Positions 1 to 64,000 of a stretch of DNA of 64,000 nt are shown in pieces (the stretch's first letter is position 1; the number at the start of each line of letters is the position of its first letter). Both the position numbers and the translations under genes were made by a program. The notes under the pieces were generated by a model. It was not told the origin of the DNA and did not search any database. It saw only the letters and a program-made list of their open reading frames with translations. The DNA comes from a phage: sequence record NC_100327.1, one strand, 5' to 3'.

Positions 1-117
1 CAGTGTCCATGTTGTAGTACCTTTCTCAATAGCACATGTGAAACCCTTCTTCTCAAGTTCTGCACGGCGGTCGCGTGCTTCTTTACGAGTTTTGAAATGT
101 TCGTAGATGAAAATCAT
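1..117 (-). CDS. hypothetical protein, 3'-truncated by window edge (MIFIYEHFKTRKEARDRRAELEKKGF...)
   Basis: ATG at 117-115 with AAGGAG Shine-Dalgarno upstream; frame stays open to position 1. Confidence 0.45.
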   Translation of the reverse strand, partial: MIFIYEHFKTRKEARDRRAELEKKGFTCAIEKGTTTWTL

Positions 118-127
118 AGCTGTCTCC

Positions 128-2110
128 TTATTTGGTGTTATTCTTTGCGTCGATCAGTTCACGGTATTCAATCATAGCAGGAGTGTCCCAATATTTCAAG
201 CCCACATGCTTCAAAAGTGGATATTTCTTTTCCAATCTTGCAATATAGGCCTTCCCGCACTTGACTCGGTTGGCGATTAAGATTTTGGCACGATGATTTA
301 GCTCACTGTGCTTCCACGCGGTGTTACCTTCCCACTTGTGGAAATGTGGCCGATAATTTCCAAAATCTTGCATGGGGATAATTTTCCCTAATTGTCTATA
401 CAGGCTGTCATATGAAGTTTCATTTGCTGCGCGAGTCAGTAAGAATTTCCAGGCGTCCTCTTTCAACAAATGTTCCACATTTTTCTCTGTAACATACTGG
501 CAATCAGGATCAGTCCAAAGCAGACGAGATTCTGATACCAGGTACAGATCTTCCCCTTCAGGAATCTGGAGTGCCGCACGCACACGGTCATAATTTTGCT
601 GGTAGATGTTACTTAGCTGTCCCAGCCAACAACTTCCACGTTGGATATCACCCTCATAAGGAATGCAGTGCTTAATCTTCTTGAACTCTGCCTTAGTAAT
701 ACGCTCACGACGGAAGTAACCATCTTTCTCAAGTTTTTTAACCCAATACCCTGGCTCATAGTGAGTTTTTGTTTCACCTTTCTTTACAGGACGGCGAGGG
801 AGCTCTGATAACAATTTGACCGTATCTGCAAAGAACGGGTGGTGTGCCGCTTCTTTAAACTCTTCCATCAGATCCGTGTTACGGCAATAGAAAACGTTGC
901 GTCCGGTGATCTCGCTTAAGTAGTTACACTTATTTCGGTTATATTTGCCGTCTCCGTCGTTAAATACAAGGTATACACCTCGTAAGAACTCCGACTTTCC
1001 GTAACGAGCATAGCCTATGCGGCCTTTATTTAAGCCGCCAGCGAAAATTTCACAATCGCCTAAGTCGCCAAGCCCTGTTTCTTCCCAACGGTTCCACATA
1101 AAGTTTTTGCCGAAGATGTGTCCGAACACTCCACTGTTCTTCATCATCTCACGTGCTTCTGAGGATGTTTTTGCTGTCTCCAATTCCGCAACAACTTCTG
1201 CCCCACGAAGACGTATACCTTCTTTGACAAAGGCCTCCAGGCGATCCTGGAATCCACCATCGTCGTGCCCCTCTATGGTCCATTCGCGCCCAGGGTTAAT
1301 ATTGCAATCCCCGATAGGGATCTCTACACAGATTGCAGGGTAGTCTGTCAATGTTTCCAGAAACTTAGAGCGGTAAGGTTGGTGTCCCATCACCACACGG
1401 CTCTCATCAGAGCTGGTATAACCTTTCAGGATAGTCATTTTCCAACCATCTTTCTCGTAGCGATACTGCGCCTCAACCTTGTCACCTTCCAGCATCTTAC
1501 TGGTCATAGGGTCGGTAACGGTAAACGGAAACTTTGCATAGCGTAGGCATGACGCAATAGCAGTGCGATATTTCAGAACATGCTCTTTCTTAACATGGAA
1601 CTGAACTTTTACCCCGTTGTGCTCTTCAGTCTTTCGCTCGCGGATCTTGGTAACGTTTGGGATACCCTGATCCAAGAACAATAGATATGTGCTTTCAACA
1701 CCATTGTGCACACTGATAACATCGAAAGTGTCCACCATACTGAACGGAGCCTTTGAACCAACACCTTTATTACCTACCAGAGCGTTGCTGTTGCGCTTGG
1801 TTGACTCCCCGAGATTCATGAAAGTGTTGCGGACCATCTCTTCTGACATGCCCAATCCAACGTCCTGCACAAAGAAGTATGGTTCAAGGTCTGTAGGAGA
1901 GTGAATGATGATCGGTACATCACCCCGTCCAGACTCAACATGGGAGTCCACAGCATTGAAGATTGGTTCACGGCAGCTTGCCAGCACCTTATCTTCGTAA
2001 ATCCCTTTAATGATTAGCCCAAAAGTCTCTTTGTTCAGAGAAATTGAGCCCCTGGTGACCTCCATATTTCCGGTTAGTACTGCTTTAGTTTCATTACTGT
2101 TTACAATCAT
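128..2110 (-). CDS. GHKL-superfamily ATPase (Hsp90/MutL/MORC-like ATP-binding fold) with large uncharacterised C-terminal region
   Basis: 660-aa ORF; N-box EPIFNAVDSH, G1 box DVGLGMS, G2 box GNKGVGSKA within first ~130 aa; stop overlaps RBS of downstream gene. Confidence 0.6.
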   Translation of the reverse strand: MIVNSNETKAVLTGNMEVTRGSISLNKETFGLIIKGIYEDKVLASCREPIFNAVDSHVESGRGDVPIIIHSPTDLEPYFFVQDVGLGMSEEMVRNTFMNLGESTKRNSNALVGNKGVGSKAPFSMVDTFDVISVHNGVESTYLLFLDQGIPNVTKIRERKTEEHNGVKVQFHVKKEHVLKYRTAIASCLRYAKFPFTVTDPMTSKMLEGDKVEAQYRYEKDGWKMTILKGYTSSDESRVVMGHQPYRSKFLETLTDYPAICVEIPIGDCNINPGREWTIEGHDDGGFQDRLEAFVKEGIRLRGAEVVAELETAKTSSEAREMMKNSGVFGHIFGKNFMWNRWEETGLGDLGDCEIFAGGLNKGRIGYARYGKSEFLRGVYLVFNDGDGKYNRNKCNYLSEITGRNVFYCRNTDLMEEFKEAAHHPFFADTVKLLSELPRRPVKKGETKTHYEPGYWVKKLEKDGYFRRERITKAEFKKIKHCIPYEGDIQRGSCWLGQLSNIYQQNYDRVRAALQIPEGEDLYLVSESRLLWTDPDCQYVTEKNVEHLLKEDAWKFLLTRAANETSYDSLYRQLGKIIPMQDFGNYRPHFHKWEGNTAWKHSELNHRAKILIANRVKCGKAYIARLEKKYPLLKHVGLKYWDTPAMIEYRELIDAKNNTK

Positions 2111-2607
2111 TTATTGCGCTCCTTGTAGTAGATATGACTCCCGAATTGAGCTGTCCTCTGCATCTTTTTTGCCCATTTCGGTCGTACTTTGGTTGTATGG
2201 TAGTGTGTTGCTCCACCTGTTATGTCCATAGCCATGTATGCAACATGGTTGTTATTATAGACCTTTAGAAGCATCTTTGCAAGACTTTTAGCGTGATCCC
2301 ATGAATCTTTTTCTGTCACCTTAAAAGTTTTGCCGTGGTTTGTCCACGAAAACTGGTTAGGTTGGTAGACAATCTTTCTTATAGTGTCTGGGTATTTGGG
2401 GTGAGATTTCCTGTTTAGTGTGGCAAACCCTGATGCCAGCATACCCATCGTGCCATCCCCTCTAGCCTCCCTGTAGATATTGCATGCCAGAATGTTTTCC
2501 TTAGTATCTGAGGGCTTGCAAGTATGATATACTTTTTGTTTTGGTGCTGCAACAACAGGCAGCGATAAAAGTGCGCTCAAAATAATAGCAAAGATCTTAA
2601 TTTTCAC
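2107..2607 (-). CDS. secreted cell-wall hydrolase, SleB/Hydrolase_2-like (candidate endolysin)
   Basis: 166 aa; N-terminal hydrophobic signal or SAR-like segment MKIKIFAIILSALLSLPVVAA; NIYREARGDG motif typical of SleB-type hydrolases; GTG start preceded by GGAG. Confidence 0.5.
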   Translation of the reverse strand: MKIKIFAIILSALLSLPVVAAPKQKVYHTCKPSDTKENILACNIYREARGDGTMGMLASGFATLNRKSHPKYPDTIRKIVYQPNQFSWTNHGKTFKVTEKDSWDHAKSLAKMLLKVYNNNHVAYMAMDITGGATHYHTTKVRPKWAKKMQRTAQFGSHIYYKERNK

Positions 2608-2616
2608 AATGACTCC

Positions 2617-2644
2617 AAATAGAAAATCCCCGCCGAAGCGGGGG
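2617..2644 (-). terminator. rho-independent terminator (CCCCGC-CGAA-GCGGGG hairpin plus U-run on minus-strand RNA)
   Basis: GC hairpin 2627-2644 followed on minus strand by T-run (plus A-run 2622-2626); sits immediately before RBS of hydrolase gene. Confidence 0.6.
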
Positions 2645-2656
2645 AGGTCTTAGAAA

Positions 2657-3037
2657 TTAATCGTAGTGTGCCAAAATCTCTCCATCGTTGCAAGTTCCCT
2701 CTACAAAGTTATGAAGATTCATGCACTCATCTTGATAGAAGAATTTACCGCTTTTCAGCCGTAGGCCAAACAACTCCGCATCTCCACGATGGCAAGCCTC
2801 TACAAGTTCATAGATTTCATACGGCAACTCTCCGTCGTCATGGAAGAATCCAGCCTTATCGTTGACATAAATGAAGAAATAATCACTGCTATCGCAAGCG
2901 TCCAATATTTTAAACCAGATTTCATCTACATCTTTTTCTCGGATATCGATCACGCAAGTGGAGCTGCATTCGTACTCCTTCTCCGGCTCCTCGGTCAATA
3001 CCACCAGGTAGTTTCCCCGCTTACCTACTTTAGCCAT
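2657..3037 (-). CDS. hypothetical protein
   Basis: ORF 2657-3085 trimmed to ATG at 3037 (MAKVGKRG...) which has AAGGGGGG RBS and avoids overlap with upstream gene. Confidence 0.5.
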   Translation of the reverse strand: MAKVGKRGNYLVVLTEEPEKEYECSSTCVIDIREKDVDEIWFKILDACDSSDYFFIYVNDKAGFFHDDGELPYEIYELVEACHRGDAELFGLRLKSGKFFYQDECMNLHNFVEGTCNDGEILAHYD

Positions 3038-5555: not shown

Positions 5556-5834
5556 TTAGGCAATTGTCATTTTACATTCTTGAAATTTTAACACAAGACG
5601 GTGATTGTGTCTAGTGTCTAAAAAGATTTTTTCAACCATCAGGCACACGGTATAACCGTCCATCTTGTTGACAACAAAATCTCCAGGATGAGGGAGGATG
5701 TCTCCCGGATTGGGGAAACATAGTCCACTCAGAAAGGCATCGTCAGTGGTGGACTTAATAGATTTCCACACACTGTCTGCCTGAACATGTTCACCGACGT
5801 AATATACATTACCACATGCCTTCATCATAGTCAA
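5556..5834 (-). CDS. hypothetical protein
   Basis: 92-aa ORF; its stop overlaps the RBS of the downstream MSKVTYRA gene. Confidence 0.45.
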   Translation of the reverse strand: MTMMKACGNVYYVGEHVQADSVWKSIKSTTDDAFLSGLCFPNPGDILPHPGDFVVNKMDGYTVCLMVEKIFLDTRHNHRLVLKFQECKMTIA

Positions 5835-6730
5835 ACCCTCGCATAAATTAAACTTGTATCAGTATACTTCTTTAATGGGTAAATATCCTGTCCATAGATG
5901 CAATCATTAAACACCTCATCTACCCAAAGGCTACACTTATATCCCATCATTTCTAAAACACCCATCTCTTCTTCGGTAAACTTATCACCGCTCTTGCAAG
6001 ATGTCAATACCTCATTCTGAACTCTTGCTACCTCGAAGCGGTTATTGGCAATATCGCTATTGGCGATCAAATACTCACCTAGAGGGTGTGCGGCATTAAA
6101 GATGCACAGTGGACGGCTGACGTAATAGTCTCCAGGTGTATAAAAATTGTTGAGGTCTTTCACTAGAACATTCTTATCAGTCACTTCATTTATAACATCA
6201 TGCATATCGCACATCTTTATATGTTTGAGGATTCCATCCCCCATCACAAAATAAAAACTTGCTGAAACACTTTCGGCATAGATCTTACTAGATCCGTTGT
6301 AGTTGTATTTTACTCGGATGCTAACGGGGGTTTTTCCTGTCGCGTTAGCCATCATCCAAAGAAATGGCAGCTCATACTTCTCCTCTGAGGAAACAAAAGG
6401 TGAGGTAGCCAGAGATCGAAAACCTCCAGAGAAGTTGAAAGTTACAGAACCGCTCCGGCGGTATGATACCGCGTATTCTACTTTTATATCGACATACCCA
6501 TTGGAATAGGTGTGTCCTTCATTATCTAAATATGTCCACTTATCAGACCCAGATACCAATCTACGCTCAATAACCTTCATCACTATAGGAATTAATGGGT
6601 TGGTACAAACCGCTTTTGAAGTAGCTTTATCATCTAAAGCCTCGTAAATTGCAGAAAGGATGTCCCCAGCTGAAAGATTGGTTGTTATGTCCTGTTTCCA
6701 CCGCGTACTAAAACTGTTAAGATTTGCCAT
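5831..6730 (-). CDS. hypothetical protein
   Basis: 299-aa ORF, first gene of leftward operon; AGGAG RBS; downstream of promoter at 6771-6799. Confidence 0.55.
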   Translation of the reverse strand: MANLNSFSTRWKQDITTNLSAGDILSAIYEALDDKATSKAVCTNPLIPIVMKVIERRLVSGSDKWTYLDNEGHTYSNGYVDIKVEYAVSYRRSGSVTFNFSGGFRSLATSPFVSSEEKYELPFLWMMANATGKTPVSIRVKYNYNGSSKIYAESVSASFYFVMGDGILKHIKMCDMHDVINEVTDKNVLVKDLNNFYTPGDYYVSRPLCIFNAAHPLGEYLIANSDIANNRFEVARVQNEVLTSCKSGDKFTEEEMGVLEMMGYKCSLWVDEVFNDCIYGQDIYPLKKYTDTSLIYARV

Positions 6731-6770
6731 AAGTAAGTGCTCCTATGTTAGTTTTCTTTCGAATGGGTGC

Positions 6771-6799
6771 ACTATATTGTGGAGTTAGAGTAAAGTCAA
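6771..6799 (-). promoter_or_regulatory. sigma70-like promoter for leftward early operon (TTGACT-N17-TATAGT on minus strand)
   Basis: -35 is revcomp of 6794-6799, -10 is revcomp of 6771-6776, 17-nt spacer; ~35 nt upstream of the 5831-6730 start. Confidence 0.55.
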
Positions 6800-6812
6800 C
6801 ACGTTTTTGATG

Positions 6813-6841
6813 TTGACATCTGTTGAGACAATTGATAAGAT
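6813..6841 (+). promoter_or_regulatory. sigma70-like promoter for rightward early operon (TTGACA, 17-nt spacer, TG-extended TAAGAT)
   Basis: Consensus -35 TTGACA at 6813-6818; weaker -10 at 6836-6841 with TG at 6833-6834; back-to-back with leftward promoter so the two -35 boxes form palindrome GTCAACA-N9-TGTTGAC. Confidence 0.45.
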
Positions 6842-6872
6842 TTCTTCACTTACAGAGCACGAGAGACGACTC

Positions 6873-7850
6873 ATGAATCTTGAAAAATATTATACACCAG
6901 AAGAGTTAGAGCGCTTGCTCAAAAAATATAGACGCAAACAGAATAACGCACGGAAACGAGATATAGAGTTCGACCTGTCATGGGAAGAATACCTCCTATT
7001 TGGTAAAAAACTTTTAGGAGATGGAGTATGCGACTATACCCTTATACCTTTTGACATGCACACAGATGAAAACGGGCTGGGGAATCCTTTCTACCCATCC
7101 CTGGAGCGGATAGATGATGAAGGTCCTTATGCGGTTGATAACTGTTGTGTGGTGGGATTGAGATGCAACTCTCTAAAGGACTGTCTGGTAGATAAAAAGA
7201 CTGCAGTCTTGATTAAAGACGAAACTGATCGAAAAATTGTCCAGCAGATGATGCTCCACCTGAGCGAAGAGCGTATGGAGAAATTGAAAGGTGATTATAC
7301 TTTTGAAGATTTCATCTTGCAATATGGAACGGAAGAGGATAAACTAGCACTCTTTGACGAAGAAGAGGAGGAAGATATGCTACCGATGTCTAAAGTTACT
7401 TATCGTGCACCCAAGAAGCACATTTCCGACATTGTAAACGAGCCTATCACAGAAGAGATTGAAGAAATGACGCAACAGGTGCATGAAGAGGAAAAAGAGA
7501 CTCAGGAGGTCGAAGAGGAGCTTACAGAAGAGGTTCCTGCACTACCTGATGATGTTGAGATTGCCAAAGCTTACACTTTCTATTGTCAAACGTTCTACGA
7601 TGTAGGTATGAAAGTTGATCTGTCGTTCAGCCAATTTAAGAGTTCGTATATTCGCAAATGCTGTGCTTTAACTGGTGAACGTCTTGGAGCTGGACTTAAA
7701 CCCCTGTTGGTGACCGACTGGAATAAAGGTTTCACTAAAGGAAACTTTATGGTAGTATCTCCGATTATGGAGAAAGCTATGACAGATCTTATGAAGACCA
7801 CCCGCATGACAATGACCGAGTTGGCAGGTATTTTCAAACACGTTAAATAA
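6873..7850 (+). CDS. hypothetical protein; N-terminal part has a degenerate HNH-like motif, C-terminal part begins with the repeat-encoded MSKVTYRA after an internal SD-like sequence
   Basis: ORF 6807-7850 trimmed to ATG 6873 because 6807 lies inside the promoter; acidic linker DEEEEED; internal GAGGAGGAAGAT plus ATG at 7387 may mark a nested start. Confidence 0.45.
   Translation: MNLEKYYTPEELERLLKKYRRKQNNARKRDIEFDLSWEEYLLFGKKLLGDGVCDYTLIPFDMHTDENGLGNPFYPSLERIDDEGPYAVDNCCVVGLRCNSLKDCLVDKKTAVLIKDETDRKIVQQMMLHLSEERMEKLKGDYTFEDFILQYGTEEDKLALFDEEEEEDMLPMSKVTYRAPKKHISDIVNEPITEEIEEMTQQVHEEEKETQEVEEELTEEVPALPDDVEIAKAYTFYCQTFYDVGMKVDLSFSQFKSSYIRKCCALTGERLGAGLKPLLVTDWNKGFTKGNFMVVSPIMEKAMTDLMKTTRMTMTELAGIFKHVK
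7381..7409. repeat. 29-bp perfect inverted repeat, right copy (partner at 5519-5547)
   Basis: Exact reverse-complement match to 5519-5547. Confidence 0.9.
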
Positions 7851-7883
7851 TGACAGGGGCCAATGGCCCCTTCTGGAGTTTTA

Positions 7884-9344
7884 ATGGATAGCAGAAGTTC
7901 AGAAATCATTGCCTCGCAGAAAGATGATGCCCTGAGAATGTTGCAGGCTGCACGTATGTATCTCCTTGAAAAGCTGCCGTTTTATGGCACACTACTGTCA
8001 GGGTTGCAGTTCGTAGAAAACCACACATGGTGCTCCACCATGGCAACCGACCATAAACGCATCTATTACAGTCCTGAGTTCATTATGGGATTGGCTGATG
8101 AACGCAAGGCTATTCTTAAGGCTTCTCTAACTGACGAGCAGTTTGAGATGGCTGAAGTTTTCTATTCCCCAAAATCTGTGAAAGAGGTGGCCTTCCTTCT
8201 GTCACATGAGGTGGGGCATATTATCTGTGATCACCTAGTCCGTGGTAAAAGCTTTGAGCCGGAACTGTTCAATATTGCTTGTGATCACGTTATCAACACA
8301 GGCCTTGTGGTTGACTTTAGCAAACCTCCTTGTGTTTTCTTCCCGAAGGGGAAAAGCACTACGTTCCTGAAAGGTAAGCCTTTTGGCTTCTTAGCCAGCT
8401 GCTACTGCGACATGAAGTTTCATGGATGGATTGCTGAGAACGTTTATGCAGTTCTTGATAAGCAAAGAGATCAGAATAACGGTAAAAGTAAGAACGGTAA
8501 AGGTGAGAACTCTCAAAGTGATAAGCGACAAACCGATGATCGCATGAGTGGGAACGGTGGCACCAGTGATAATCTTGGAAAGGCTATGGGGTATGATCAG
8601 CCACAACCTGTAATCAGCCAATCTGATAAAGATCAGGCCATGCAGGACTCTGGTGATATGCTGGAGGCAGCAATGCAAGCGTCCGGAGGCCGTTGCCCTG
8701 AGGCGGTGCGTGAGTTTGTCAAGAACAGAGGTAAGCCTGTAATCAACTATATAGACATCATTAAGCAACGTATGTTGTCTAAAAGAAAGGCCGAACTGAC
8801 CTACAGAAAACCTGGTCGCCGATCTGGGTCTTTGACCAGCACAATGCGAAAAGTTGGGGCTATAAACAAGAACCAGCACGTTATTGTTCCTGGTCGTAAT
8901 CCGGAAAACACTATAGATATTGTGGTGGCTTTAGACGTTTCTGGCTCGATCTCTCAAAGAACTTTAAAGAAAATGTTCAATGAAATCACCGGATTGTGCA
9001 ATCTGTATAAAGAGTTTAAGGTTACAATGTTCTGTTGGTCAACTGAGGTTGGAGAGGTTAAAGTATACACTCGCGGCAACATAGACGAGATGGTCAACTA
9101 TGAGGTCCACTCAACATGGGGCACAACAGCTGCTTGCGTGTTCGAGTATCTGGATGCCAACATACCTAATGCAAAAGATGTCATCGTCCTGACCGACCTA
9201 TACTTTGAGCATAACTTTGAACAAAAGGTTGTTGACAACAAGTGGAAAAAGTACGATACTCTATGGGTCCTCACTGAGGGGTATAATAAAAATTATATCC
9301 CGAGCTTTGGGAAAACTGTGGAATTAATCGAGTACGCTAAGTAA
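7884..9344 (+). CDS. zinc-metallopeptidase-like plus von Willebrand A domain protein (DUF2201-like, typical partner of MoxR ATPases)
   Basis: HEXXH motif HEVGHIICDH in N-terminal half; C-terminal MIDAS-type VWA motif VVALDVSGSIS; start moved to ATG 7884 with GGAG RBS, outside the GGGGCC-AAT-GGCCCC hairpin at 7856-7870. Confidence 0.65.
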   Translation: MDSRSSEIIASQKDDALRMLQAARMYLLEKLPFYGTLLSGLQFVENHTWCSTMATDHKRIYYSPEFIMGLADERKAILKASLTDEQFEMAEVFYSPKSVKEVAFLLSHEVGHIICDHLVRGKSFEPELFNIACDHVINTGLVVDFSKPPCVFFPKGKSTTFLKGKPFGFLASCYCDMKFHGWIAENVYAVLDKQRDQNNGKSKNGKGENSQSDKRQTDDRMSGNGGTSDNLGKAMGYDQPQPVISQSDKDQAMQDSGDMLEAAMQASGGRCPEAVREFVKNRGKPVINYIDIIKQRMLSKRKAELTYRKPGRRSGSLTSTMRKVGAINKNQHVIVPGRNPENTIDIVVALDVSGSISQRTLKKMFNEITGLCNLYKEFKVTMFCWSTEVGEVKVYTRGNIDEMVNYEVHSTWGTTAACVFEYLDANIPNAKDVIVLTDLYFEHNFEQKVVDNKWKKYDTLWVLTEGYNKNYIPSFGKTVELIEYAK

Positions 9345-13888: not shown

Positions 13889-16800
13889 TTAACGAGAAAA
13901 GGTTGCGTAGGCTTCTAGACGATACTGCTGGTCACCAGGGAACATAACACCTATAGAGGCTGTCCCTAGAATCCTGCCTTCCTTTCCAGACTCCATTCTG
14001 AACCCTACCCATCCTGAACTCCTTGCAGCCTCGATGTTGTCGCTATACCCGAAAGTGGCAAGATCGTCAACACCAGCCCCAAACAGCAACTGAAGCTGAC
14101 TTCTCGGAAGCCCTATAATTTCAGGAATATACGCACCAAAGTACACCATCTGCCCTACCTTAGGACCGCTGCCGTACTCCATCGGTTTGCTTGTAGAGAA
14201 AGTCTTCATACCAGAAGTACCTGCCGGATTAGGGTATGCCCCATTTGTTGCTGTACCTATCCACATTCTCCACTGTGGTGCCATCTGTTTGACAGTAAAA
14301 GATGTTGAAGACGTTTTGCGCCCTGCATCATCAGTAACTACAAACTTTATGGTGACATTCCCAGTAGCTTTAAATGTTACCAGCCCTGTGGCAGCATCCA
14401 CTGTTGCAATGTTGGTATTACTACTTTCCCAAGTCTTTCTAATACCGGATACGTTGGAAGGGGTAATAGAAGGTTCCTGCATCTGCAGTTTACCACCCAC
14501 AATCCCTATGCCGTTACCTGGATTATACAGCACACCAACCTCGTCTACAATGTTCCCTGCTTTGAGACTATACTTCCTTGAGAAGTTGTAGGTTCCGTTA
14601 TAAGTGTGTGTCCCTGAGAAGGTGACATCTGCCTTCCCGTAAGAGATGCAAACCAAAGCATACTTCCTGTCAGGCAACGTTTCTCCAGTCTCTGGGTGAG
14701 TTTTACCCACCTGGAACACGCTCGGGTCAGTAGAGTCGTGACTATCGCTAATGGAGCTTGGACCTCCCATCAACTGTGACAAACAATTCCTTACCCATGT
14801 CCAGTTATTATCACTGGAGAAGTCCACAGTCAAATCAAACACAACCCACTCATTCGGCTTCCACACAGGTGTTGCAATGGACTTGCCTACACCACCTCCT
14901 TGGAGTGTTGCCGACTGTTCGGTGATCAGGGCCGCATAGGCCAGAGTCCCTAAACTCAGAGTCTGGCTTGCTGTCCTCACTACCTTAGAATCAGCATCTG
15001 TGAAGTTGTTGATGATTTGGAATGTGCCATAAGTGTTTTTACAGGTAATTCTGGCGTTCAGCGTGTCAATCTTCCTCACATCTGCCATAGCAGTGTTAGA
15101 CACAGAGAAGTCAGAAGCTTTAGCTGAGTTTGCCGCAACAGCAGGATCAACGTTAAGAGTTGCGTTGAACTGACAGGCAGGGGTAACCAGCAGCTTGTTA
15201 TCACCTATTTGCTTCCATGAAATACTTTGGACAGGTAGATTCCATTTAATACCTGAGAAAACTTTAGCAACCCTTGGCCCCAAAGCTCCAGTCCTGTTGT
15301 CTTTACAGCACATAGACATGGTGATCGTTGACGGAGTTGCCTGACCGAACAATTCCTGTGCTTTTGCAGAGGACATAGTGTAGAAATTGTCCTTAACAAA
15401 CTCATCAGCGGCTAAAGATCCGTCAGCCCTCCACCACTGCACCTGGTACCCGGTCTTATCCCAGCCACCGACCTGCTTCAGGTCTTCCCAGGAGATTTCC
15501 AGATCCCCAGTGGTAGGGTTGATTGCAGCAGCCCCTGGTGTTCCAGAGGACCATAATGGGATATCGAACCACGCTGGTTTAGCAGACTGCACTGCGCTGG
15601 GACCTATTGCGGCAGCAAGTTGCTGGCCCATCAATACGCGAGCATCTTTCACCAGACCCCACTCGATCATAGACCCAGAGTAACCTTCTTTCTTGTAGGC
15701 TGAGGATCCGTTCAAATGGATGAGTCGGCTTGTGCCAAAGTTATGTGCTCCACCACCGTTGTCGTCTGCAAAATTGGTTATGATTCTATCCCTGATATTT
15801 TTCCATGCCCTGCCCCCAATCTCATAGTCATGGTCATAACATCTTTGCAGTGTTGTCCAGCAAATGATCGCCATCCTTCTACCATCGCTGAATCCAAAGG
15901 CCTGATCGTTAAGCTCTCTCCACAAGTAGCAGTTAGTGGTCCACATGGCCCTATGAATGTTAAACCAGTTTATAGATTTGGCTGAGTTGTCCCACTGAGT
16001 CCCAGGTAATTCAGGCCATACTGCATTAACCAGCATGTCTTCTGTTCCTGCATCAACCAAGAACCCTCTTACCTTCTTACCCATGCCTACCCTATCTTTT
16101 GCAATCCAACTGCCAAACAATCTCAGTTTTGGACCATAGACAACATCTTCCGGATGCTCAAAAGAAATATATTTTAGGTATATTGTAGGGTCACCATAGG
16201 TGCCATCACAAACAGCTTTGTGCATGTTCTCGCCAAGGTCTAGACGAAGTCCTGTTACAACTTTAGATGTGTCGGTGAATTTGTCTGTTAAATCAAACTC
16301 ATACCACCACCAACCTGCACCCAACAATACTTTCTTACAACGCTGTGCATCTGTATCAGATATTCTCTTATCACCTGCAAAAGGCGAGTCAGCAAACTGA
16401 TAGTGCAGAGCAATCTCAAAAGGATGTGTGGATGTCCCGTTTTCTGCAAGAACTTGTTTACCTATTAAGTCGCACTTAATGATCATCACAACACGTTTGT
16501 ACCCGTTTGTTACCGGAATTTGCATAGACATGGATGTCCCGTCCATGTTTGATCTCAGTGCAGTCATGATGATATAAGGGTCAACGGCATTGCCCAGAGT
16601 CTCAGGACCGGGGATTATCTTATACTTCTTGACCTGCCCCATGATGTAGTCACTTGCGTAAGTTGCCGCATTCAAGCAAGATCCCCCACCAGGTAACTCA
16701 CCAGGTCCCCAGAAAAATGCGCCGTAACAGTTGTAGAACCACTTGTTAGGATCGTATTTATTCTTGAAGGTCTGAACCTCGTTGGCCTGTTTTGTCAAGA

Positions 16801-19525
16801 AAACCTGCGTGTCTGTGAAGATTGCAGGGTTTACTCTCGCCTGTCTTGGAGGGTAACCTGTAGTTTGGTTAAACCACAAATTACAAGAGTAATCCCTCAT
16901 ATAGTCATAATCAGAGTATTTGTTTACATCTTCGTTCCAACACATGTTTAGGTTGGTACCGCCCATGCATACAATATATTCTGCGACATACTTATCACTT
17001 CTGGTAGGAATACCTATGAACCATCTGTTAACAGGCTCATCCCAAGCTGTGCGCTCATCTTTAACGCAGATAGCAATCCAGTCATGTGTTCCTGTTTTCT
17101 TGCACACATCTCGCTTCATACCATAGTAGAACTCTTTAGTATCCGGCTCAGGTGCATTTATCAGGTAACTCCATGCCTGATTTGCATAAGTTCCATTGGT
17201 GCGTGGATCATGATCAAAGGCATACATGATGATCCTTTCCCCACCAAGATGTTCGCCAAGAGTAACTTTGACATTCACATCGCCGTAACCGTTGCGAACA
17301 ACATCCATATTATCAATAGAGATACCTCTGGGCGTGTAGGCAATTTTCAGCGAGTTATCTTCACTAGTGCCGCCAAGTGTAATCCCTATGTTGTTTGTTG
17401 TCCCGTCGACATATCTTACTGTAGCTTCCCAGCGTATTCCGAAATATCCTGCATCATGGCTGACAATTTTCAGTGTACGAGCCCCAGAGCTAGGTTTTCC
17501 AGGATCAGGCCAAGGATCTGGATGTTCATGGACAGTCAACGATGTTCCGTTTTGCTCGTTGACCTGCAACATTTTACCGCCTCTGCCGTTAGGGTTGAAC
17601 TCCCACAAGGCTTGTGTTTTCACAACATTGTCATACGTGGTACGTCTCTGATCGTAGATCTCTTGAGTCACATCGTAGGTTACAGACCCGGCATCCATTC
17701 TATGGAGTCGTACCATATACGATGTATCGCCTTCTACAACAGGTTGAGCTGCGTTAAGCCCGAAGTATACAGTATCGTTGACATGGAACTGTTTGTTTCT
17801 ACCGACAGTATGCCACTTGCCGTTGGACGGATACGCAGGAACTATGGTGTTCCAGTTCAAAGTTCTTGTCGTATGGGTTCTGCCTGTGCCATGCTTGTCA
17901 TGATAGGTTATTTTTACAGAGTACAGGCCACGTCTGTTAACATTTCTGTTATACTGGGTAACAACAACTTCGTTGGCCCCACCGTGGTTCCAGTTGGTGG
18001 AGAATTGGTAATTTGCATCTGTAACAACCGTACCTGCAGCATTTACCAACTCAATCTTGTCAATAATGAACGTAGCCCCCTCTGGCTGAGGCTTCAATTT
18101 CATCTTGACCGTGTCACCAATGTAGATATTGCTAACACTACTAACACCATTAACGTCGAAAATATCATCAACGCCCCAACTGTCTACTGGGACATTTTTA
18201 TACCAATTCTCAGGAACCTCTGTGAACCCCTGACTATTAAGTCTGCCGCCAAACAGGTTATTAGAGCCTGCAAAACTTCCCCTTGGGATGCCTGACCACC
18301 AAAGTTTGCCATTAACAACAGTAAAGGTCCCTAAGAAACCTTCTCTGTGGATACCCTGGAAATAAACACTTTCTGTCCAGCTTACTGGCATCCGTTGCTC
18401 GACGTATTTAGCCGTAGCCAGAGCCTGATAGTGAATAAAATTAGCCCTAGGACTGTTGTTTGCAGATTGTGCACCAATATCATTGCACAGATTGCGAGAG
18501 AAGCCACGATACTGTTTGGTGCCATTATTGAAGAAAATGCCACTTGTGCCGTATCCACGAGCCATTATCACCTCATGGGTGTAGGTGATATTTAAGGAAC
18601 GCCATGTGTCATCTCCCCAGACGTCTTGCCCGTAGAATACGTTAACAAGCTGTTGGTCATCAGGTTTGTGCATCCTTTCTGTGGCTATAATTGCACCATT
18701 AGGTCCACACATGAACCCTTTCCATGTCTCGCCCACCGGGATGCCTTTAAACTGGTCAAGAGTCACATGCTCGGCTGGATAAACTAGTGTGTTTTTGCTG
18801 TTATTTCTTAAGAAATCGTAACCTGCAATCCAGAATCCGTTAGGACCACCAAAAATAACCGAGTTGTCATGAACTTCACAATTAATTCTTGGATTTTTCC
18901 AAGGACCTGTCTCTGGACTTTCAGATGTTTCACCGATCTTAACTGGAGTAGCGTGTTGACTTTTGTCAACATGAAGAGAGCCGTAAGTATTATTGCCAGA
19001 GCCGTACAGGTGAAGCATACCATCAGCCTCTGGTGCAGCAATTACCCACACTGTATTGTTTACGCCACCCATTACTTCAACAAGTCTCTCAGGATGGGTG
19101 TCCAAATGCAACCCTGTTACGATCTGTTCCGGCAAAGGTGTCCACTCTCTGACACAAACATCGTTTCCACCTGCTGCCTCCGATCCGATAAGACCAGCTG
19201 TGCAACCAATATAGAAAAATTTATTATCGAATGTGCGGATTACAAATGCACGGTCAGCTCTCCAAACATGGTCTACGTTCCAAGCTGCCTCATTAGGATA
19301 GTTTATTGTATCAAGATCTCCAGTCCGACACTCTCCGAACCTATTATAGCCAGTAATATTAAGCTGACCATCATCAAAAAGTATAGCTAAGCTATTTACA
19401 TAGGATACTGTGTTGCTTGTACCATCACTGTTGTCTATTGGGTATGACAGAACAGCAAGTTCCTTAATTCCACCCCTCTTATCGAGGAAATGACGACCAA
19501 GTTTTAGCAAAGGGATTGGAAGCAT
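13889..19525 (-). CDS. giant virion-associated protein (1878 aa) with C-terminal bacterial Ig-like domain; putative adhesin or tail fibre
   Basis: Single uninterrupted ORF; Big_2-like segment IATVDAATGLVTFKATGNVTIKFVVTDDAG near C-terminus; lies at distal end of tail-fibre block. Confidence 0.6.
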   Translation of the reverse strand: MLPIPLLKLGRHFLDKRGGIKELAVLSYPIDNSDGTSNTVSYVNSLAILFDDGQLNITGYNRFGECRTGDLDTINYPNEAAWNVDHVWRADRAFVIRTFDNKFFYIGCTAGLIGSEAAGGNDVCVREWTPLPEQIVTGLHLDTHPERLVEVMGGVNNTVWVIAAPEADGMLHLYGSGNNTYGSLHVDKSQHATPVKIGETSESPETGPWKNPRINCEVHDNSVIFGGPNGFWIAGYDFLRNNSKNTLVYPAEHVTLDQFKGIPVGETWKGFMCGPNGAIIATERMHKPDDQQLVNVFYGQDVWGDDTWRSLNITYTHEVIMARGYGTSGIFFNNGTKQYRGFSRNLCNDIGAQSANNSPRANFIHYQALATAKYVEQRMPVSWTESVYFQGIHREGFLGTFTVVNGKLWWSGIPRGSFAGSNNLFGGRLNSQGFTEVPENWYKNVPVDSWGVDDIFDVNGVSSVSNIYIGDTVKMKLKPQPEGATFIIDKIELVNAAGTVVTDANYQFSTNWNHGGANEVVVTQYNRNVNRRGLYSVKITYHDKHGTGRTHTTRTLNWNTIVPAYPSNGKWHTVGRNKQFHVNDTVYFGLNAAQPVVEGDTSYMVRLHRMDAGSVTYDVTQEIYDQRRTTYDNVVKTQALWEFNPNGRGGKMLQVNEQNGTSLTVHEHPDPWPDPGKPSSGARTLKIVSHDAGYFGIRWEATVRYVDGTTNNIGITLGGTSEDNSLKIAYTPRGISIDNMDVVRNGYGDVNVKVTLGEHLGGERIIMYAFDHDPRTNGTYANQAWSYLINAPEPDTKEFYYGMKRDVCKKTGTHDWIAICVKDERTAWDEPVNRWFIGIPTRSDKYVAEYIVCMGGTNLNMCWNEDVNKYSDYDYMRDYSCNLWFNQTTGYPPRQARVNPAIFTDTQVFLTKQANEVQTFKNKYDPNKWFYNCYGAFFWGPGELPGGGSCLNAATYASDYIMGQVKKYKIIPGPETLGNAVDPYIIMTALRSNMDGTSMSMQIPVTNGYKRVVMIIKCDLIGKQVLAENGTSTHPFEIALHYQFADSPFAGDKRISDTDAQRCKKVLLGAGWWWYEFDLTDKFTDTSKVVTGLRLDLGENMHKAVCDGTYGDPTIYLKYISFEHPEDVVYGPKLRLFGSWIAKDRVGMGKKVRGFLVDAGTEDMLVNAVWPELPGTQWDNSAKSINWFNIHRAMWTTNCYLWRELNDQAFGFSDGRRMAIICWTTLQRCYDHDYEIGGRAWKNIRDRIITNFADDNGGGAHNFGTSRLIHLNGSSAYKKEGYSGSMIEWGLVKDARVLMGQQLAAAIGPSAVQSAKPAWFDIPLWSSGTPGAAAINPTTGDLEISWEDLKQVGGWDKTGYQVQWWRADGSLAADEFVKDNFYTMSSAKAQELFGQATPSTITMSMCCKDNRTGALGPRVAKVFSGIKWNLPVQSISWKQIGDNKLLVTPACQFNATLNVDPAVAANSAKASDFSVSNTAMADVRKIDTLNARITCKNTYGTFQIINNFTDADSKVVRTASQTLSLGTLAYAALITEQSATLQGGGVGKSIATPVWKPNEWVVFDLTVDFSSDNNWTWVRNCLSQLMGGPSSISDSHDSTDPSVFQVGKTHPETGETLPDRKYALVCISYGKADVTFSGTHTYNGTYNFSRKYSLKAGNIVDEVGVLYNPGNGIGIVGGKLQMQEPSITPSNVSGIRKTWESSNTNIATVDAATGLVTFKATGNVTIKFVVTDDAGRKTSSTSFTVKQMAPQWRMWIGTATNGAYPNPAGTSGMKTFSTSKPMEYGSGPKVGQMVYFGAYIPEIIGLPRSQLQLLFGAGVDDLATFGYSDNIEAARSSGWVGFRMESGKEGRILGTASIGVMFPGDQQYRLEAYATFSR

Positions 19526-60499: not shown

Positions 60500-61415
60500 C
60501 AGGTAGTCTATCTGCTCCCATTCGAACTGTGTCGTTTATGTTCGGGCAAGGTCGCTAGTCTTGCCCCGCCATTTTCAGGCAGCTGCATGTCTCCATGCAG
60601 ACCAGACTATATCTTATGAATGTGCAAATACTCTGCCGCTCTAAGAATAGTTTCCTCATCCTCTTGGAAGAAACCTAAAGCTCTGTTGCATTTATCACAA
60701 AGCAACCCTCTTACAGCACCAGTTTTATGGTCATGATCAACACAAAAGAAATCTCTGTACCCTTGCGTCCTATACTCATCAAGAGATATTCTACAAATGG
60801 CACACTTATGATCTTGATCTGAGAGTAGACGATAGTATTCATCTTTTGTTATGTGAAATTTCTTCTCAATCTGATAAAACTTTTCACACATCTTACACCT
60901 GTTCGTAACCAGATATACTTTACCATAGTCACGTTTTGTGTAAAAACTATCAGCGAGCATACTTTCATGACAAGATTTGCATTCAAAAAGTTCACCTTTC
61001 TTCAGCAAGTCTTGAATAAATAATGCTGCGTCATCTCTCTTAACCATATTTTTGTTTCTACGAGATCCACCATTCCTGTAGTACATATAGCATTCCTTGC
61101 ATGTACCTGAGTATCCATCCTTGCTCTTAGATGATAAAAAGAAATCATCAATAGGTAGAACTCTTTGGCAATCCATACATTTTTTAGTATTACACATTCA
61201 CCCTCCCGTTTCGAATCGCTTGATTCTACGTCTTTCGACTAGTCGTTGAACGTTCATCCTCTCGGATGCTTCGCTGCGGATTATCTAAATTAACACACTG
61301 TTACCATACCTTCGATCTCTCTTCGAAGCCTCTATCATGTTACCATGACAGGTTGGTGGTGTCAATAATAAAGATTTCCCCGCAATTAGGGAGGTTTTAC
61401 GAGAGCTACAAATTA
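60500..61415 (-). mobile_element. group I intron 1 in terL, carrying an Endonuclease VII-like homing endonuclease ORF; boundaries approximate
   Basis: Minus-strand core elements P AATTGCGGGGAAA (plus 61375-61387), Q AATCCGCAGC (61273-61282), R GTTCAACGACTAGTC (61237-61251), S AAGATATAGTC (60605-60615, overlapping ORF stop). Confidence 0.75.
60607..61197 (-). CDS. Endonuclease VII-like (T4 gp49-type) homing endonuclease (intron-encoded)
   Basis: 196 aa; N-terminal CxxC zinc cluster; signature DHDHKTGAVRGLLCDKCN; C-terminal codons coincide with the intron S element. Confidence 0.7.
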   Translation of the reverse strand: MCNTKKCMDCQRVLPIDDFFLSSKSKDGYSGTCKECYMYYRNGGSRRNKNMVKRDDAALFIQDLLKKGELFECKSCHESMLADSFYTKRDYGKVYLVTNRCKMCEKFYQIEKKFHITKDEYYRLLSDQDHKCAICRISLDEYRTQGYRDFFCVDHDHKTGAVRGLLCDKCNRALGFFQEDEETILRAAEYLHIHKI

Positions 61416-61841
61416 ACCCTCATCGAAGCAAACCATGGTGTACTCAAGCCCCTGATGGTTAAGCTTATCTTGTACATACTCCATATGGCAGTATTTTACA
61501 ACAGCTCCCTTTTTGCTTCTATCCCACTTACCAGTGTTCGGATCAAACCGTGGAAAAATGAACTTATGATCCTTCTCTCTGAACTTTGGCTTAATGTTTT
61601 CAGGCAGATCACTATAAATAGCTACTGCTTTAGGCCATAGTCCACCCTCACCTTCCAACTGTGGGGTTGTTCTTCGGAACATAACCACAGAGCTGTGGGG
61701 GTCATCAATAATTTTAAGTGGCATCAACTGCAAGAGGAACGACTTGCCAGACCCTGCGGCACCGCCGATTACCAAAATATCTGCATCGTTTTCTAGGATC
61801 ATCTTCTGCTTTTCAGAACACGGTCCGTAAATCTTAGACAT
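61413..61841 (-). CDS. terL: terminase large subunit, exon 1 (N-terminal ATPase domain); 3' boundary approximate
   Basis: Walker A VIGGAAGSGKS, Walker B-like MVCFDEG at the end, then in-frame TAA followed by intron P element. Confidence 0.75.
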   Translation of the reverse strand: MSKIYGPCSEKQKMILENDADILVIGGAAGSGKSFLLQLMPLKIIDDPHSSVVMFRRTTPQLEGEGGLWPKAVAIYSDLPENIKPKFREKDHKFIFPRFDPNTGKWDRSKKGAVVKYCHMEYVQDKLNHQGLEYTMVCFDEG

Positions 61842-62128
61842 TAACCTCTCTCCTTTGGAAACAGTGTTCTAATATAGTCTTGCAAAATGATCAATTTAGC
61901 TCTATCATTGCTACAAGACAGATTATTATCCCTCATAATGCCAGAATTCACTGCATCTGGCGCACCTTTCTTCAAAGGCATAGCTTTAGCAGGTGGTTTC
62001 ATGGCACCTTCCGGGGGTTTAACAATCAACCTTCCTACATCCGGAGGGTCAATCTTGTATTCTCTCTCAACGCTGGTTGCACACCCACATAATAACAAGC
62101 ACACAATAAACAGTGTAGCAACTCTCAT
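61841..62128 (-). CDS. o-spanin (outer-membrane lipoprotein, Rz1-like)
   Basis: 95 aa; lipobox LLCGC after signal peptide; proline-rich mature region; immediately downstream of i-spanin. Confidence 0.55.
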   Translation of the reverse strand: MRVATLFIVCLLLCGCATSVEREYKIDPPDVGRLIVKPPEGAMKPPAKAMPLKKGAPDAVNSGIMRDNNLSCSNDRAKLIILQDYIRTLFPKERG

Positions 62129-62523
62129 CTACCCTCCTGATTAATACTCTCATTATAAATATCTATAAGCTGATCAGGGAGTGTTGACTTCTTACCCTCA
62201 GGTGACTGGAGGTAAATAATCTGCTTTTCTTTACCTGCCTTCTCAGCCATATTTAATTTATCCTGTAGATCAGAAAGGGATTTTTCAAGGTTTTTAACCT
62301 CCTCTGCGTGGCCCATTTTAATTTTGTCGGCCTGCTTTTGTTGCTGATCAAGGATCCGTTCCCACTTTAACTCTGTTGCTGACACACCTTCTTGGTAGGC
62401 ATCATTAAGCTTAGAGTTAAACCAATACACGGCCCCAAGATAAGCTGTACCTATCGCAGCTGCAAAAACTAAACCTTTTATGATCCCTCTATACCTGCTC
62501 AGCCATGTTAAAACTGAAATCAT
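62125..62523 (-). CDS. i-spanin (inner-membrane, Rz-like)
   Basis: 132 aa; N-terminal transmembrane helix IIKGLVFAAAIGTAYLGAVYWF then coiled-coil periplasmic domain; 4-nt overlap with o-spanin. Confidence 0.55.
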   Translation of the reverse strand: MISVLTWLSRYRGIIKGLVFAAAIGTAYLGAVYWFNSKLNDAYQEGVSATELKWERILDQQQKQADKIKMGHAEEVKNLEKSLSDLQDKLNMAEKAGKEKQIIYLQSPEGKKSTLPDQLIDIYNESINQEGR

Positions 62524-62539
62524 TTTAAGGCTCCAGAAA

Positions 62540-62575
62540 CGAAAAAACCCCGCAGCTATACAGCTAACGGGGCGG
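62540..62575 (-). terminator. rho-independent terminator
   Basis: GC-rich hairpin containing AGCUGUAUAGCU palindrome followed by UUUUUUCG on minus RNA. Confidence 0.5.
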
Positions 62576-62628
62576 GTTAAAATTGAGTAACCTAAATAGA
62601 TCGAAACTAACTAAAAGGAGACTAATAC

Positions 62629-62898
62629 TTATCGAGGCACTCGGTGGATGATTCTAACAGTAACTGCATTTTCATTCATCAAGTATGCATCTACATCTCT
62701 GTAAATATAAAACTTCTGCTCACTATCAACAACACAAGCTACCGCCCCTTCAGAGTTGTCTTCAAAAAAGACCACCACTGCATCGCAGCTGAGTTCATGA
62801 TATGACTCTCGAAGATTTACAGCCAGAGGATTGAAATCGTCACGAAAATCTACGGTATGGGTTGGATTTACACGCTCTACAATTTTAAGTGTATACAT
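62629..62898 (-). CDS. hypothetical protein
   Basis: ORF 62629-62988 trimmed to ATG 62898 (MYTLKIVERV...) with AAAGGAAC RBS; longer form would overlap tRNA-Pro. Confidence 0.45.
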   Translation of the reverse strand: MYTLKIVERVNPTHTVDFRDDFNPLAVNLRESYHELSCDAVVVFFEDNSEGAVACVVDSEQKFYIYRDVDAYLMNENAVTVRIIHRVPR

Positions 62899-62944
62899 TT
62901 TAAAGGTTCCTTTTGTTTGTATATGTTTAAAGTATAACTGAAAG

Positions 62945-63021
62945 TGGTCTCCACGGAGTGATTCGAACACTCGACCTCCTGATCCCAAATCAGGCGCTCT
63001 ACCAAGCTGAGCTACGCGGAG
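62945..63021 (-). tRNA. tRNA-Pro (anticodon UGG), CCA encoded
   Basis: Manual fold: 7-bp acceptor CUCCGCG/CGUGGAG, D-arm GCUC...GAGC, anticodon loop UUUGGGA, T-arm GUCGAGUGUUCGAAUCACUC. Confidence 0.7.
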
Positions 63022-63032
63022 TATTTATTATT

Positions 63033-63107
63033 TGGTGGCCCTGGGTGGAATTGAACCACCGTCTGGCGATTATGAGTCGCTTGCTTGAACCTTCCAGCTA
63101 CAGGGCC
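63033..63107 (-). tRNA. tRNA-Met (anticodon CAU; initiator, elongator or lysidine-Ile not distinguishable), CCA encoded
   Basis: Acceptor GGCCCUG/CAGGGCC, anticodon loop CUCAUAA, T-arm GGUGGUUCAAUUCCACC. Confidence 0.6.
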
Positions 63108-63108
63108 A

Positions 63109-63184
63109 TGGTGCTGATGGCAGGACTTGAACCCGCAACCTATTGATTACAAATCAATTGCACTACCGATTGTGCTACATCAGC
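63109..63184 (-). tRNA. tRNA-Thr (anticodon UGU), CCA encoded
   Basis: Acceptor GCUGAUG/CAUCAGC, anticodon arm AUUGA-UUUGUAA-UCAAU, T-arm GCGGGUUCAAGUCCUGC. Confidence 0.7.
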
Positions 63185-63191
63185 AAAAAGG

Positions 63192-63288
63192 TGCTAGGTG
63201 ATGGAATCGAACCACCTATGTATTCAACGACTACCTCGTCTATTTTCAGGATTAAAAATCCTCGCCCTTGCCAAAGGGCTTACCTAGC
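63192..63288 (-). tRNA. atypical tRNA-like element (97 nt; possible UUU anticodon, oversized variable region); may be a pseudo-tRNA
   Basis: Perfect 7-bp acceptor GCUAGGU/ACCUAGC, D-arm GCCC-UUUGGCAA-GGGC, canonical T-arm GGUGG-UUCGAUU-CCAUC; ~30 nt between anticodon-like hairpin and T-arm; CCA not fully encoded. Confidence 0.35.
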
Positions 63289-63386
63289 TCAGTATGTTGA
63301 CCATGTTGCTAGTCGGCGATGACGACTGTAACATTTGATAATCCGGTTCTGCTTCCGACTTTCGCTTAATTACAAGGTCAACAATG

Positions 63387-63477
63387 TGGCGGAGAGTAAT
63401 GGAATCGAACCATCATCGAGTCATCCTCAACGGGACGGTTTTCAAGACCGCTTGAGCACCATTGCTCCCTACCCTCC
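63387..63477 (-). tRNA. tRNA-Ser (anticodon UGA), long variable arm, CCA encoded
   Basis: Acceptor GGAGGGU/ACUCUCC, anticodon arm GCGGU-CUUGAAA-ACCGU, long variable arm, T-arm GAUGG-UUCGAUU-CCAUU. Confidence 0.65.
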
Positions 63478-63591
63478 TTTATAAATTATACTGATAATGA
63501 CACTGATTTTCGAGCAGTTAGTGACTAGTATAAACGACGATAAATATCAATGCCATTATCTGTATTATTTATGCATCTAAAAATATAAATT

Positions 63592-63678
63592 TGGTGGGGA
63601 GTGGTGGAGTCGAACCACCCGAGTCGCAATGACAATAGATTTACAGTCTACACCGCTACCTCTACGGGATAACTCCCC
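63592..63678 (-). tRNA. tRNA-Tyr (anticodon GUA), long variable arm, CCA encoded
   Basis: Acceptor GGGGAGU/ACUCCCC, anticodon arm GUAGA-CUGUAAA-UCUAU, T-arm GGUGG-UUCGACU-CCACC. Confidence 0.65.
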
Positions 63679-63682
63679 AATT

Positions 63683-63757
63683 TGGCACCCCGTACTGGAC
63701 TCGAACCAGTGTCAACGGCTTAGAAGGCCGCTGCTTTATCCACTAAGCTAACAGGGC
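63683..63757 (-). tRNA. tRNA-Arg (anticodon UCU), CCA encoded
   Basis: Acceptor GCCCUGU/ACGGGGU with G-U pairs, anticodon arm GCGGC-CUUCUAA-GCCGU, T-arm ACUGG-UUCGAGU-CCAGU. Confidence 0.65.
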
Positions 63758-63815
63758 ACTGGGTGGCTTTCTTTTACACCTTAGCCGCCAGAAAAGGTGG
63801 GAGACCATGTTTACA

Positions 63816-63844
63816 ATATTACACTGTTAAGCAAAGTTTGTCAA
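63816..63844 (-). promoter_or_regulatory. sigma70-like promoter upstream of tRNA cluster (TTGACA-N17-TAATAT on minus strand)
   Basis: -35 is revcomp of 63839-63844, -10 is revcomp of 63816-63821; ~60 nt upstream of first tRNA. Confidence 0.5.
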
Positions 63845-63853
63845 GAAAATATT

Positions 63854-64000
63854 TTAGCTATTGCTAACAGGTTGTATTTCTGTGGTAAATGGCATAAAAG
63901 GTGCTGGTTTTTCAGCCTCTTCTACTACCACCTCTTCCTCTTCACCAAACATCTCATCATATTCTTCCTGCATTCGGTCTGCCTTATCAAGAACATACTC
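63854..64000 (-). CDS. hypothetical protein, 5'-truncated by window edge (acidic C-terminus ...EYDEMFGEEEEVVVEEAEKPAPF...)
   Basis: Open frame from window end to TAA at 63856-63854 on the minus strand. Confidence 0.4.
   Translation of the reverse strand, partial: EYVLDKADRMQEEYDEMFGEEEEVVVEEAEKPAPFMPFTTEIQPVSNS

Follow-up and report, generated by a model that had tools for sequence, protein, structure and literature searches.

Beck and Warren reportedly set out, in 1988, a classification of divergent promoters that includes back-to-back pairs. The junction described here, which separates genes 10 and 11 in an rV5-like coliphage, shares with the back-to-back sigma-70 class its outward-facing promoters, abutting upstream regions and non-overlapping transcripts, and differs from that class only in a 13-bp gap between the -35 boxes and in the TG that flanks each of them. 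Tn10 tetR/tetA with TetR and Escherichia coli bioA/bioBFCD with BirA are operator-controlled divergent pairs, and the likeness to them lies in a dyad within a divergent promoter region, at which one dimer could affect both directions. In those systems, however, the operator is sequence-specific in its own right, has a known regulator and shows conserved symmetry, whereas the dyad at the gene 10/11 junction coincides with the -35 boxes, loses its symmetry in relatives and is unique in the window, by which we mean the whole 64-kb stretch of DNA analysed here. A further type, the symmetry-driven bidirectional promoter attributed to Warman et al. in 2021, is said to share one symmetric -10 region between both directions, with starts about 18 bp apart. 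There, too, divergent transcription arises from the symmetry of promoter elements, but at the gene 10/11 junction it is the -35 boxes that are symmetric, each direction has its own -10 element and 84 bp separate the predicted starts. Assignment to this type was considered and rejected, as the two -10 elements stand apart at 6771-6776 and 6836-6841.

The pair itself has a described counterpart in phage rV5, where the sites between genes 10 and 11 were called bidirectional promoters (Kropinski et al. 2013, Virol J 10:76, PMC3606486) and where, in the genome layout given in that paper, the gene 10/11 gap is one of two divergent gaps. Its Table S4 lists P010 (6636..6681, minus strand, TTGACT...TATAGT) and P011 (6685..6713, plus strand, TTGACA...TGATACGAT), which are predictions from sequence just as they are in the window. 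The passages retrieved from that paper and this table (PMC3606486) make no mention of the inverted repeat. As a prediction, then, the promoter pair is already known from rV5, and the value of what follows lies mainly in annotation: the rV5 prediction is confirmed in another isolate and gains comparative support from 19 genomes.

The analysed DNA and its relatives

The window derives from an rV5-like coliphage of the genus Vequintavirus. A megablast search with positions 5800-7900 retrieved 117 phage records, all Vequintavirus, among which nimi and CarlMeissner were each 100.0% identical over the interval. Both were also 100% identical to the left end of the window (1-3000); at the right end (61000-64000), the best match was 99.1% (nomo and rV5_ev146), with nimi diverging there. 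The window is thus very close to deposited genomes but matches none of them throughout, as a mosaic or an undeposited isolate would. The junction was aligned across 19 Vequintavirus sequences sharing 84-100% identity, and pieces of the nimi genome were used as separate proxies for the genome outside the window, without being joined to it. A pattern scan of IMG/VR for the junction element returned one further contig.

A conserved pair of back-to-back promoters

Both promoters sit in a 142-bp gap between the divergent open reading frames 5831-6730 (minus strand) and 6873-7850 (plus strand), each facing the first gene of its unit. The leftward promoter, TTGACT-N17-TATAGT, was read directly from the minus strand at 6799..6771 (seen from the plus strand as ACTATA, 6771-6776, and AGTCAA, 6794-6799) and agrees with the sigma-70 consensus at 5/6 positions of the -35 box and 5/6 of the -10 box (10/12 together), across a 17-bp spacer. 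Its -35 box (6794..6799) was invariant in 19/19 aligned sequences, and its -10 box (6771..6776), which corresponds to rV5 P010, was identical in 18/19, the exception being TACAGT in Aya. From promoter geometry, transcription would start at an A at 6764 on the minus strand, 7 nt past the -10 box, giving a predicted leader of 34 nt to the gene 10 ATG at 6730. Direct reading also places a Shine-Dalgarno sequence, AGGAG, at 6740..6744 on the minus strand, where a ribosome binding site is annotated in phage Murica.

The rightward promoter, TTGACA-N17-TAAGAT with a TG extension, was likewise read directly, from the plus strand at 6813..6841. Here the -35 box (6813..6818; rV5 P011) agrees with the consensus at 6/6 positions and the -10 box (6836..6841) at 4/6, again 10/12 across a 17-bp spacer, to which the TG of an extended -10 element (TGn, 6833..6834) is added. 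The -35 box and the TG were both invariant in 19/19 sequences, the latter within a spacer that varies around it, and only position 3 of the -10 box varied (A in 12 sequences, C in 7). The predicted start, once more an A 7 nt past the -10 box on geometric grounds, lies at 6848 on the plus strand, 84 bp from its leftward counterpart at 6764, and would leave 25 nt of leader before the ATG at 6873. Every base quoted for the two promoters in the initial annotation, including the N17 spacers and the TG extension, proved correct on direct reading, and a consensus scan found both sites independently at 10/12 each.

Adding 128 to the published rV5 coordinates yields the window coordinates, identifying the same gene 10/11 junction. 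The two pairs are orthologous, with TTGACT-17-TATAGT on the minus strand and TTGACA-17 with a TG-extended -10 on the plus strand in both. The -10 box of P011 is TACGAT in rV5 and TAAGAT in the window; the other promoter elements match. Among public records, GenBank DQ832317 (rV5) annotates P11 as 'Sigma70-type promoter; P11', and the record of phage Gotham (MT682716) carries both promoters as PhagePromoter predictions at the equivalents of 6771-6799 and 6813-6841.

Sites scoring at least 10/12 were more frequent in the window than in dinucleotide-preserving shuffles (37 vs 16 +/- 4), and shuffled versions of the 142-bp intergenic region carried such a site on both strands in 0.08% of cases. 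Across the 19 sequences, 2/26 columns varied in the four hexamers and the TG, compared with 24/32 in the two spacers (Fisher p = 2e-7) and with 51/116 in the remaining intergenic columns (p = 3e-4). Fixed elements separated by freely varying spacers are the signature expected of working promoters, and both sites are therefore more than chance occurrences. As E. coli sigma-70-type promoters, they have the appropriate hexamers and spacing, stand before the first gene of a unit and are conserved above their surroundings. The proposal that back-to-back divergent sigma-70 promoters head two early units is thus borne out by position, by conservation and by prior publication for rV5. On these sequence grounds we take the two promoters to be real and conserved, and from them we infer the start sites, the early timing and recognition by sigma-70. 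Our search for mapped start sites, timing, polymerase-binding data or transcriptomes of Vequintavirus found none in the searchable literature, and the sole RNA-seq paper naming Vequintavirus had sequenced a T5-like phage.

Between the -35 boxes, 6/13 columns varied among the 19 sequences, with a tract of five T residues (T5, 6804..6808) constant in 19/19. Read from the leftward promoter, this tract is AAAAA at about -44 to -40, and may weakly suggest a proximal tract resembling an UP element for that promoter.

Genes 10 and 11 and the start of gene 11

Gene 10 (5831..6730, minus strand, 299 aa) is the first gene of the leftward unit. Its product belongs to PHROG 12338, of unknown function, and returned no Pfam match; tblastn found the gene only in the 117 Vequintavirus records. 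The label 'alpha 1-3 fucosyltransferase' that it bears is unsupported. Gene 11 (6873..7850, plus strand, 325 aa), the first gene of the rightward unit, encodes an Srd-like 'anti-sigma / HNH' protein of which residues 3-324 align to profile positions 2-286 of PHROG 3118, with weaker matches to Srd and sigma70-decoy families and no Pfam match. In the rV5 paper, its authors suggested that the Srd-like protein may help in the switch from early to late transcription (Kropinski et al. 2013, PMC3606486).

An open reading frame start at 6807 falls inside the promoter region, and it had been suggested from the sequence that the gene begins at 6873 instead; codon-position statistics, alignment to homologues and PHROG profiles, and the majority of annotations all agree with the later start. 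Variable columns between 6807 and 6872 were spread over the three codon positions (10/10/6) without third-position bias, while between 6873 and 7172 they numbered 12/3/43 (p = 1e-10). Alignments with distant homologues begin at residue 1 or 2 of the product that starts at 6873. The in-frame TTG (6807), ATG (6810) and TTG (6813) were considered as starts and rejected, both because the codon-position test spoke against them and because they are lost among relatives: 9/19 genomes have AGG or AGA in place of the ATG at 6810, and two lack the TTG at 6807.

Murica, Gotham, FV3 and most other records place the start of gene 11 at the equivalent of 6873, the rV5 record at that of 6915, and nimi (MN850626, CDS nimi_140) at the ATG at 6810. 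A start at 6810 puts 63 nt of promoter, comprising the rightward -35 box, spacer and -10 box, inside the coding sequence. In V18 and Alma, an indel falls near the beginning of gene 11, and the coding sequence is annotated from some 150-180 nt further on; the indel could reflect either an error of sequencing or a genuine frameshift.

An inverted repeat made of -35 boxes

The inverted repeat GTCAACA-N9-TGTTGAC is present at 6795..6817, with arms at 6795-6801 and 6811-6817 that hold the two -35 cores, as the initial annotation described and as direct reading confirmed. Its symmetry ends with the 7-bp arms and extends no further in either direction. Of the seven bases in each arm, five belong to the TTGAC core and two to the TG just ahead of the -35 box. 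Two divergent TTGAC cores necessarily read GTCAA...TTGAC, which makes 5/7 arm positions automatic and the palindrome unremarkable. The remaining two positions are also commonplace: among promoter-like sites in the window and the nimi proxy pieces, TG precedes TTGAC in 24/77 (31%), compared with a dinucleotide background of 7.2% (p = 5e-10), and in Table S4 of the rV5 paper (PMC3606486) the same holds for 8/26 published promoters. In agreement with this preference, the heptamer TGTTGAC on its own is enriched (25 occurrences vs 11.5 expected), and 'tgTTGAC' is the commonest form of the -35 region in this rV5-like phage genome. At a TG frequency of 31%, about 10% of back-to-back pairs would form a 7-bp dyad.

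In the 19 aligned sequences, the dyad was complete (7/7) in 11, reduced to 6/7 in six and to the bare cores (5/7) in two, while the 9-nt spacing between its arms was free of indels throughout. Aya, in which both arms have changed symmetrically (C:G to T:A at 6800/6812), was considered as a case of covariation; this was rejected because two other genomes carry that left-arm change without compensation, and because no sequence in the set is more diverged than Aya. A search of the 64-kb window for further copies, such as a regulon would have, found none with up to two mismatches, and with up to three it gave 4 matches vs 3.9 expected. A perfect everted copy, TGTTGAC-TTTT-GTCAACA, lies at 18954-18971 inside a 1878-aa open reading frame on the minus strand (13889-19525), and is probably a product of chance or coding constraint.

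As a single strand, the repeat folds into a hairpin of -5.4 kcal/mol (z = -1.4), and 18/200 shuffles folded as well as this. An intrinsic terminator flagged by a scan on the minus strand (6817..6795) was rejected, as the structure has three G-C pairs and ordinary energy, and lies upstream of both predicted starts and between divergent genes.

Other divergent junctions

A second divergent junction, outside the window at nimi 133996-134118, contains TTTCAA-gtg-TTGACA at 134048-134062, so placing -35 boxes back to back 3 bp apart. Homologues of the Srd-like gene 11 product, 37-40% identical, occur in Seunavirus, Mydovirus and Avunavirus, and in these other genera of the Vequintavirinae the Srd-like gene again stands at the head of a divergent junction, facing away from a gene other than gene 10. 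The strong promoter of the Srd-like gene there is TTGACA-17-(A/G)ATAAT (11/12) in SPLA5a, KpS8 and EC152, and TTGACA-16-GATACT (10/12) in Av-05. An inverted -35-like hexamer stands 3 bp from the TTGACA of the Srd-like gene (AATCAAgtaTTGACA, AATCAAgggTTGACA, AGTCAAcgcTTGACA); SPLA5a and KpS8 each have a clear leftward partner, but in Av-05 and EC152 the partner is ambiguous, the best one on the minus strand lying elsewhere. The gap between -35 hexamers is thus 13 bp at the gene 10/11 junction vs 3 bp elsewhere, a curious difference of exactly 10 bp. Abutting -35 boxes recur, but the spacing of their half-sites differs, which argues against a specific site for a dimer.

The annotated nimi stretches offered one DNA-binding candidate, nimi_202, a protein of 116 aa that is encoded outside the window and annotated as a putative transcriptional regulator, with an HTH_36 score of 24.5 bits vs a Pfam cut-off of 25.

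What the control region is likely to be

We consider it highly probable that the gene 10/11 control region consists of two independent sigma-70 promoters placed back to back, with the inverted repeat as a geometric by-product. The leftward promoter, starting near 6764, would drive a unit that runs from gene 10 into rII and the replication genes, and the rightward promoter, starting near 6848, would drive a unit that opens, at 6873, with the Srd-like gene 11. Unmodified E. coli RNA polymerase would probably read both soon after infection. Two 'tgTTGAC' boxes that point apart would necessarily read GTCAACA...TGTTGAC, and no dedicated operator would be involved. The promoter pair is ordinary, and its palindrome is what two outward-facing -35 boxes look like when they stand side by side.

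It had been proposed at the outset that one dimeric protein occupying the palindrome could switch both early operons at once, and this part of the initial annotation did not hold up: the TG is common, the symmetry is lost in 8/19 sequences, the element is a single copy and other junctions are spaced differently. An operator on which a dimeric protein of phage or host covers both -35 boxes, switching both early units off (or on) together, seems to us very unlikely. It would account for a perfect 7-bp dyad that spans both boxes, for the unbroken 9-nt spacing in 19 genomes and for the symmetric double change in Aya, which is what an operator would predict, and nimi does encode a small putative transcriptional regulator with sub-threshold helix-turn-helix matches. 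However, with 5/7 arm bases given by the -35 cores and the other two by a TG found before 31% of TTGAC sites, no symmetry extends beyond the promoter elements; the dyad is not kept up in relatives, being imperfect in 8/19 and reduced to bare -35 cores in 2; there is no second copy in 64 kb, and matches with three mismatches occur at the level of chance; the other divergent junctions have 3 bp, not 13, and so do not share a half-site geometry; and nothing ties the weak helix-turn-helix protein to the junction site. At the opposite extreme, it is extremely improbable that one or both sites are non-functional look-alikes of the consensus and that genes 10 and 11 are transcribed from elsewhere. 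Each site does score just 10/12, with imperfect -10 hexamers (5/6 and 4/6), promoter-like sites are common in the genome and 16 of this quality are expected by chance in the window. Yet the position and orientation are correct within a divergent gap of 142 bp, two such sites would arise together by chance with a probability of about 1e-3 or less, substitutions saturate the spacers but leave the hexamers and TG conserved, and the rightward promoter is conserved across genera.

The adjacency of the -35 boxes might be functional in itself, with two polymerases coupled either by competition for overlapping DNA upstream or by mutual stimulation through negative supercoiling that arises between the divergent transcripts, and with the helical register kept at 3 or 13 bp; we regard this as very unlikely. 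In its favour, a 3-bp layout is found both at nimi's second junction and ahead of the Srd-like gene in Seunavirus and Mydovirus, the 13 bp seen here exceed it by 10 bp, and none of the 19 sequences departs from the T5 tract that lies between the boxes. Against this, the sample is small, clear in three junctions and ambiguous in Av-05 and EC152, and compact intergenic regions of phages would yield adjacent -35 boxes without selection for coupling. Also very unlikely is that abutting -35 boxes are a selected architecture of the Vequintavirinae in helical register (3/13 bp), which would couple the early units through two polymerases or through one symmetric protein on the tgTTGAC dyad, possibly with feedback of gene 11 on sigma-70. 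Were coupling to occur, this control region could serve as a compact natural model of how back-to-back promoters interact, but nothing here requires coupling, and two independent promoters remain our preferred reading.

Labels and hosts in public records

Public labels for gene 11 vary between anti-sigma factor, HNH endonuclease and anti-termination protein, and the PHROG families that it matches are labelled HNH endonuclease, Srd and sigma70 decoy. Overall, the functional labels of genes 10 and 11 in public records look unreliable. As to host names, 16 records named 'Campylobacter phage' match positions 5800-7900 of this E. coli Vequintavirus at ~90% to >99% identity, and one of them, A147, is marked UNVERIFIED with C. 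jejuni as host, which suggests contamination or misattributed hosts among the Campylobacter-named records.
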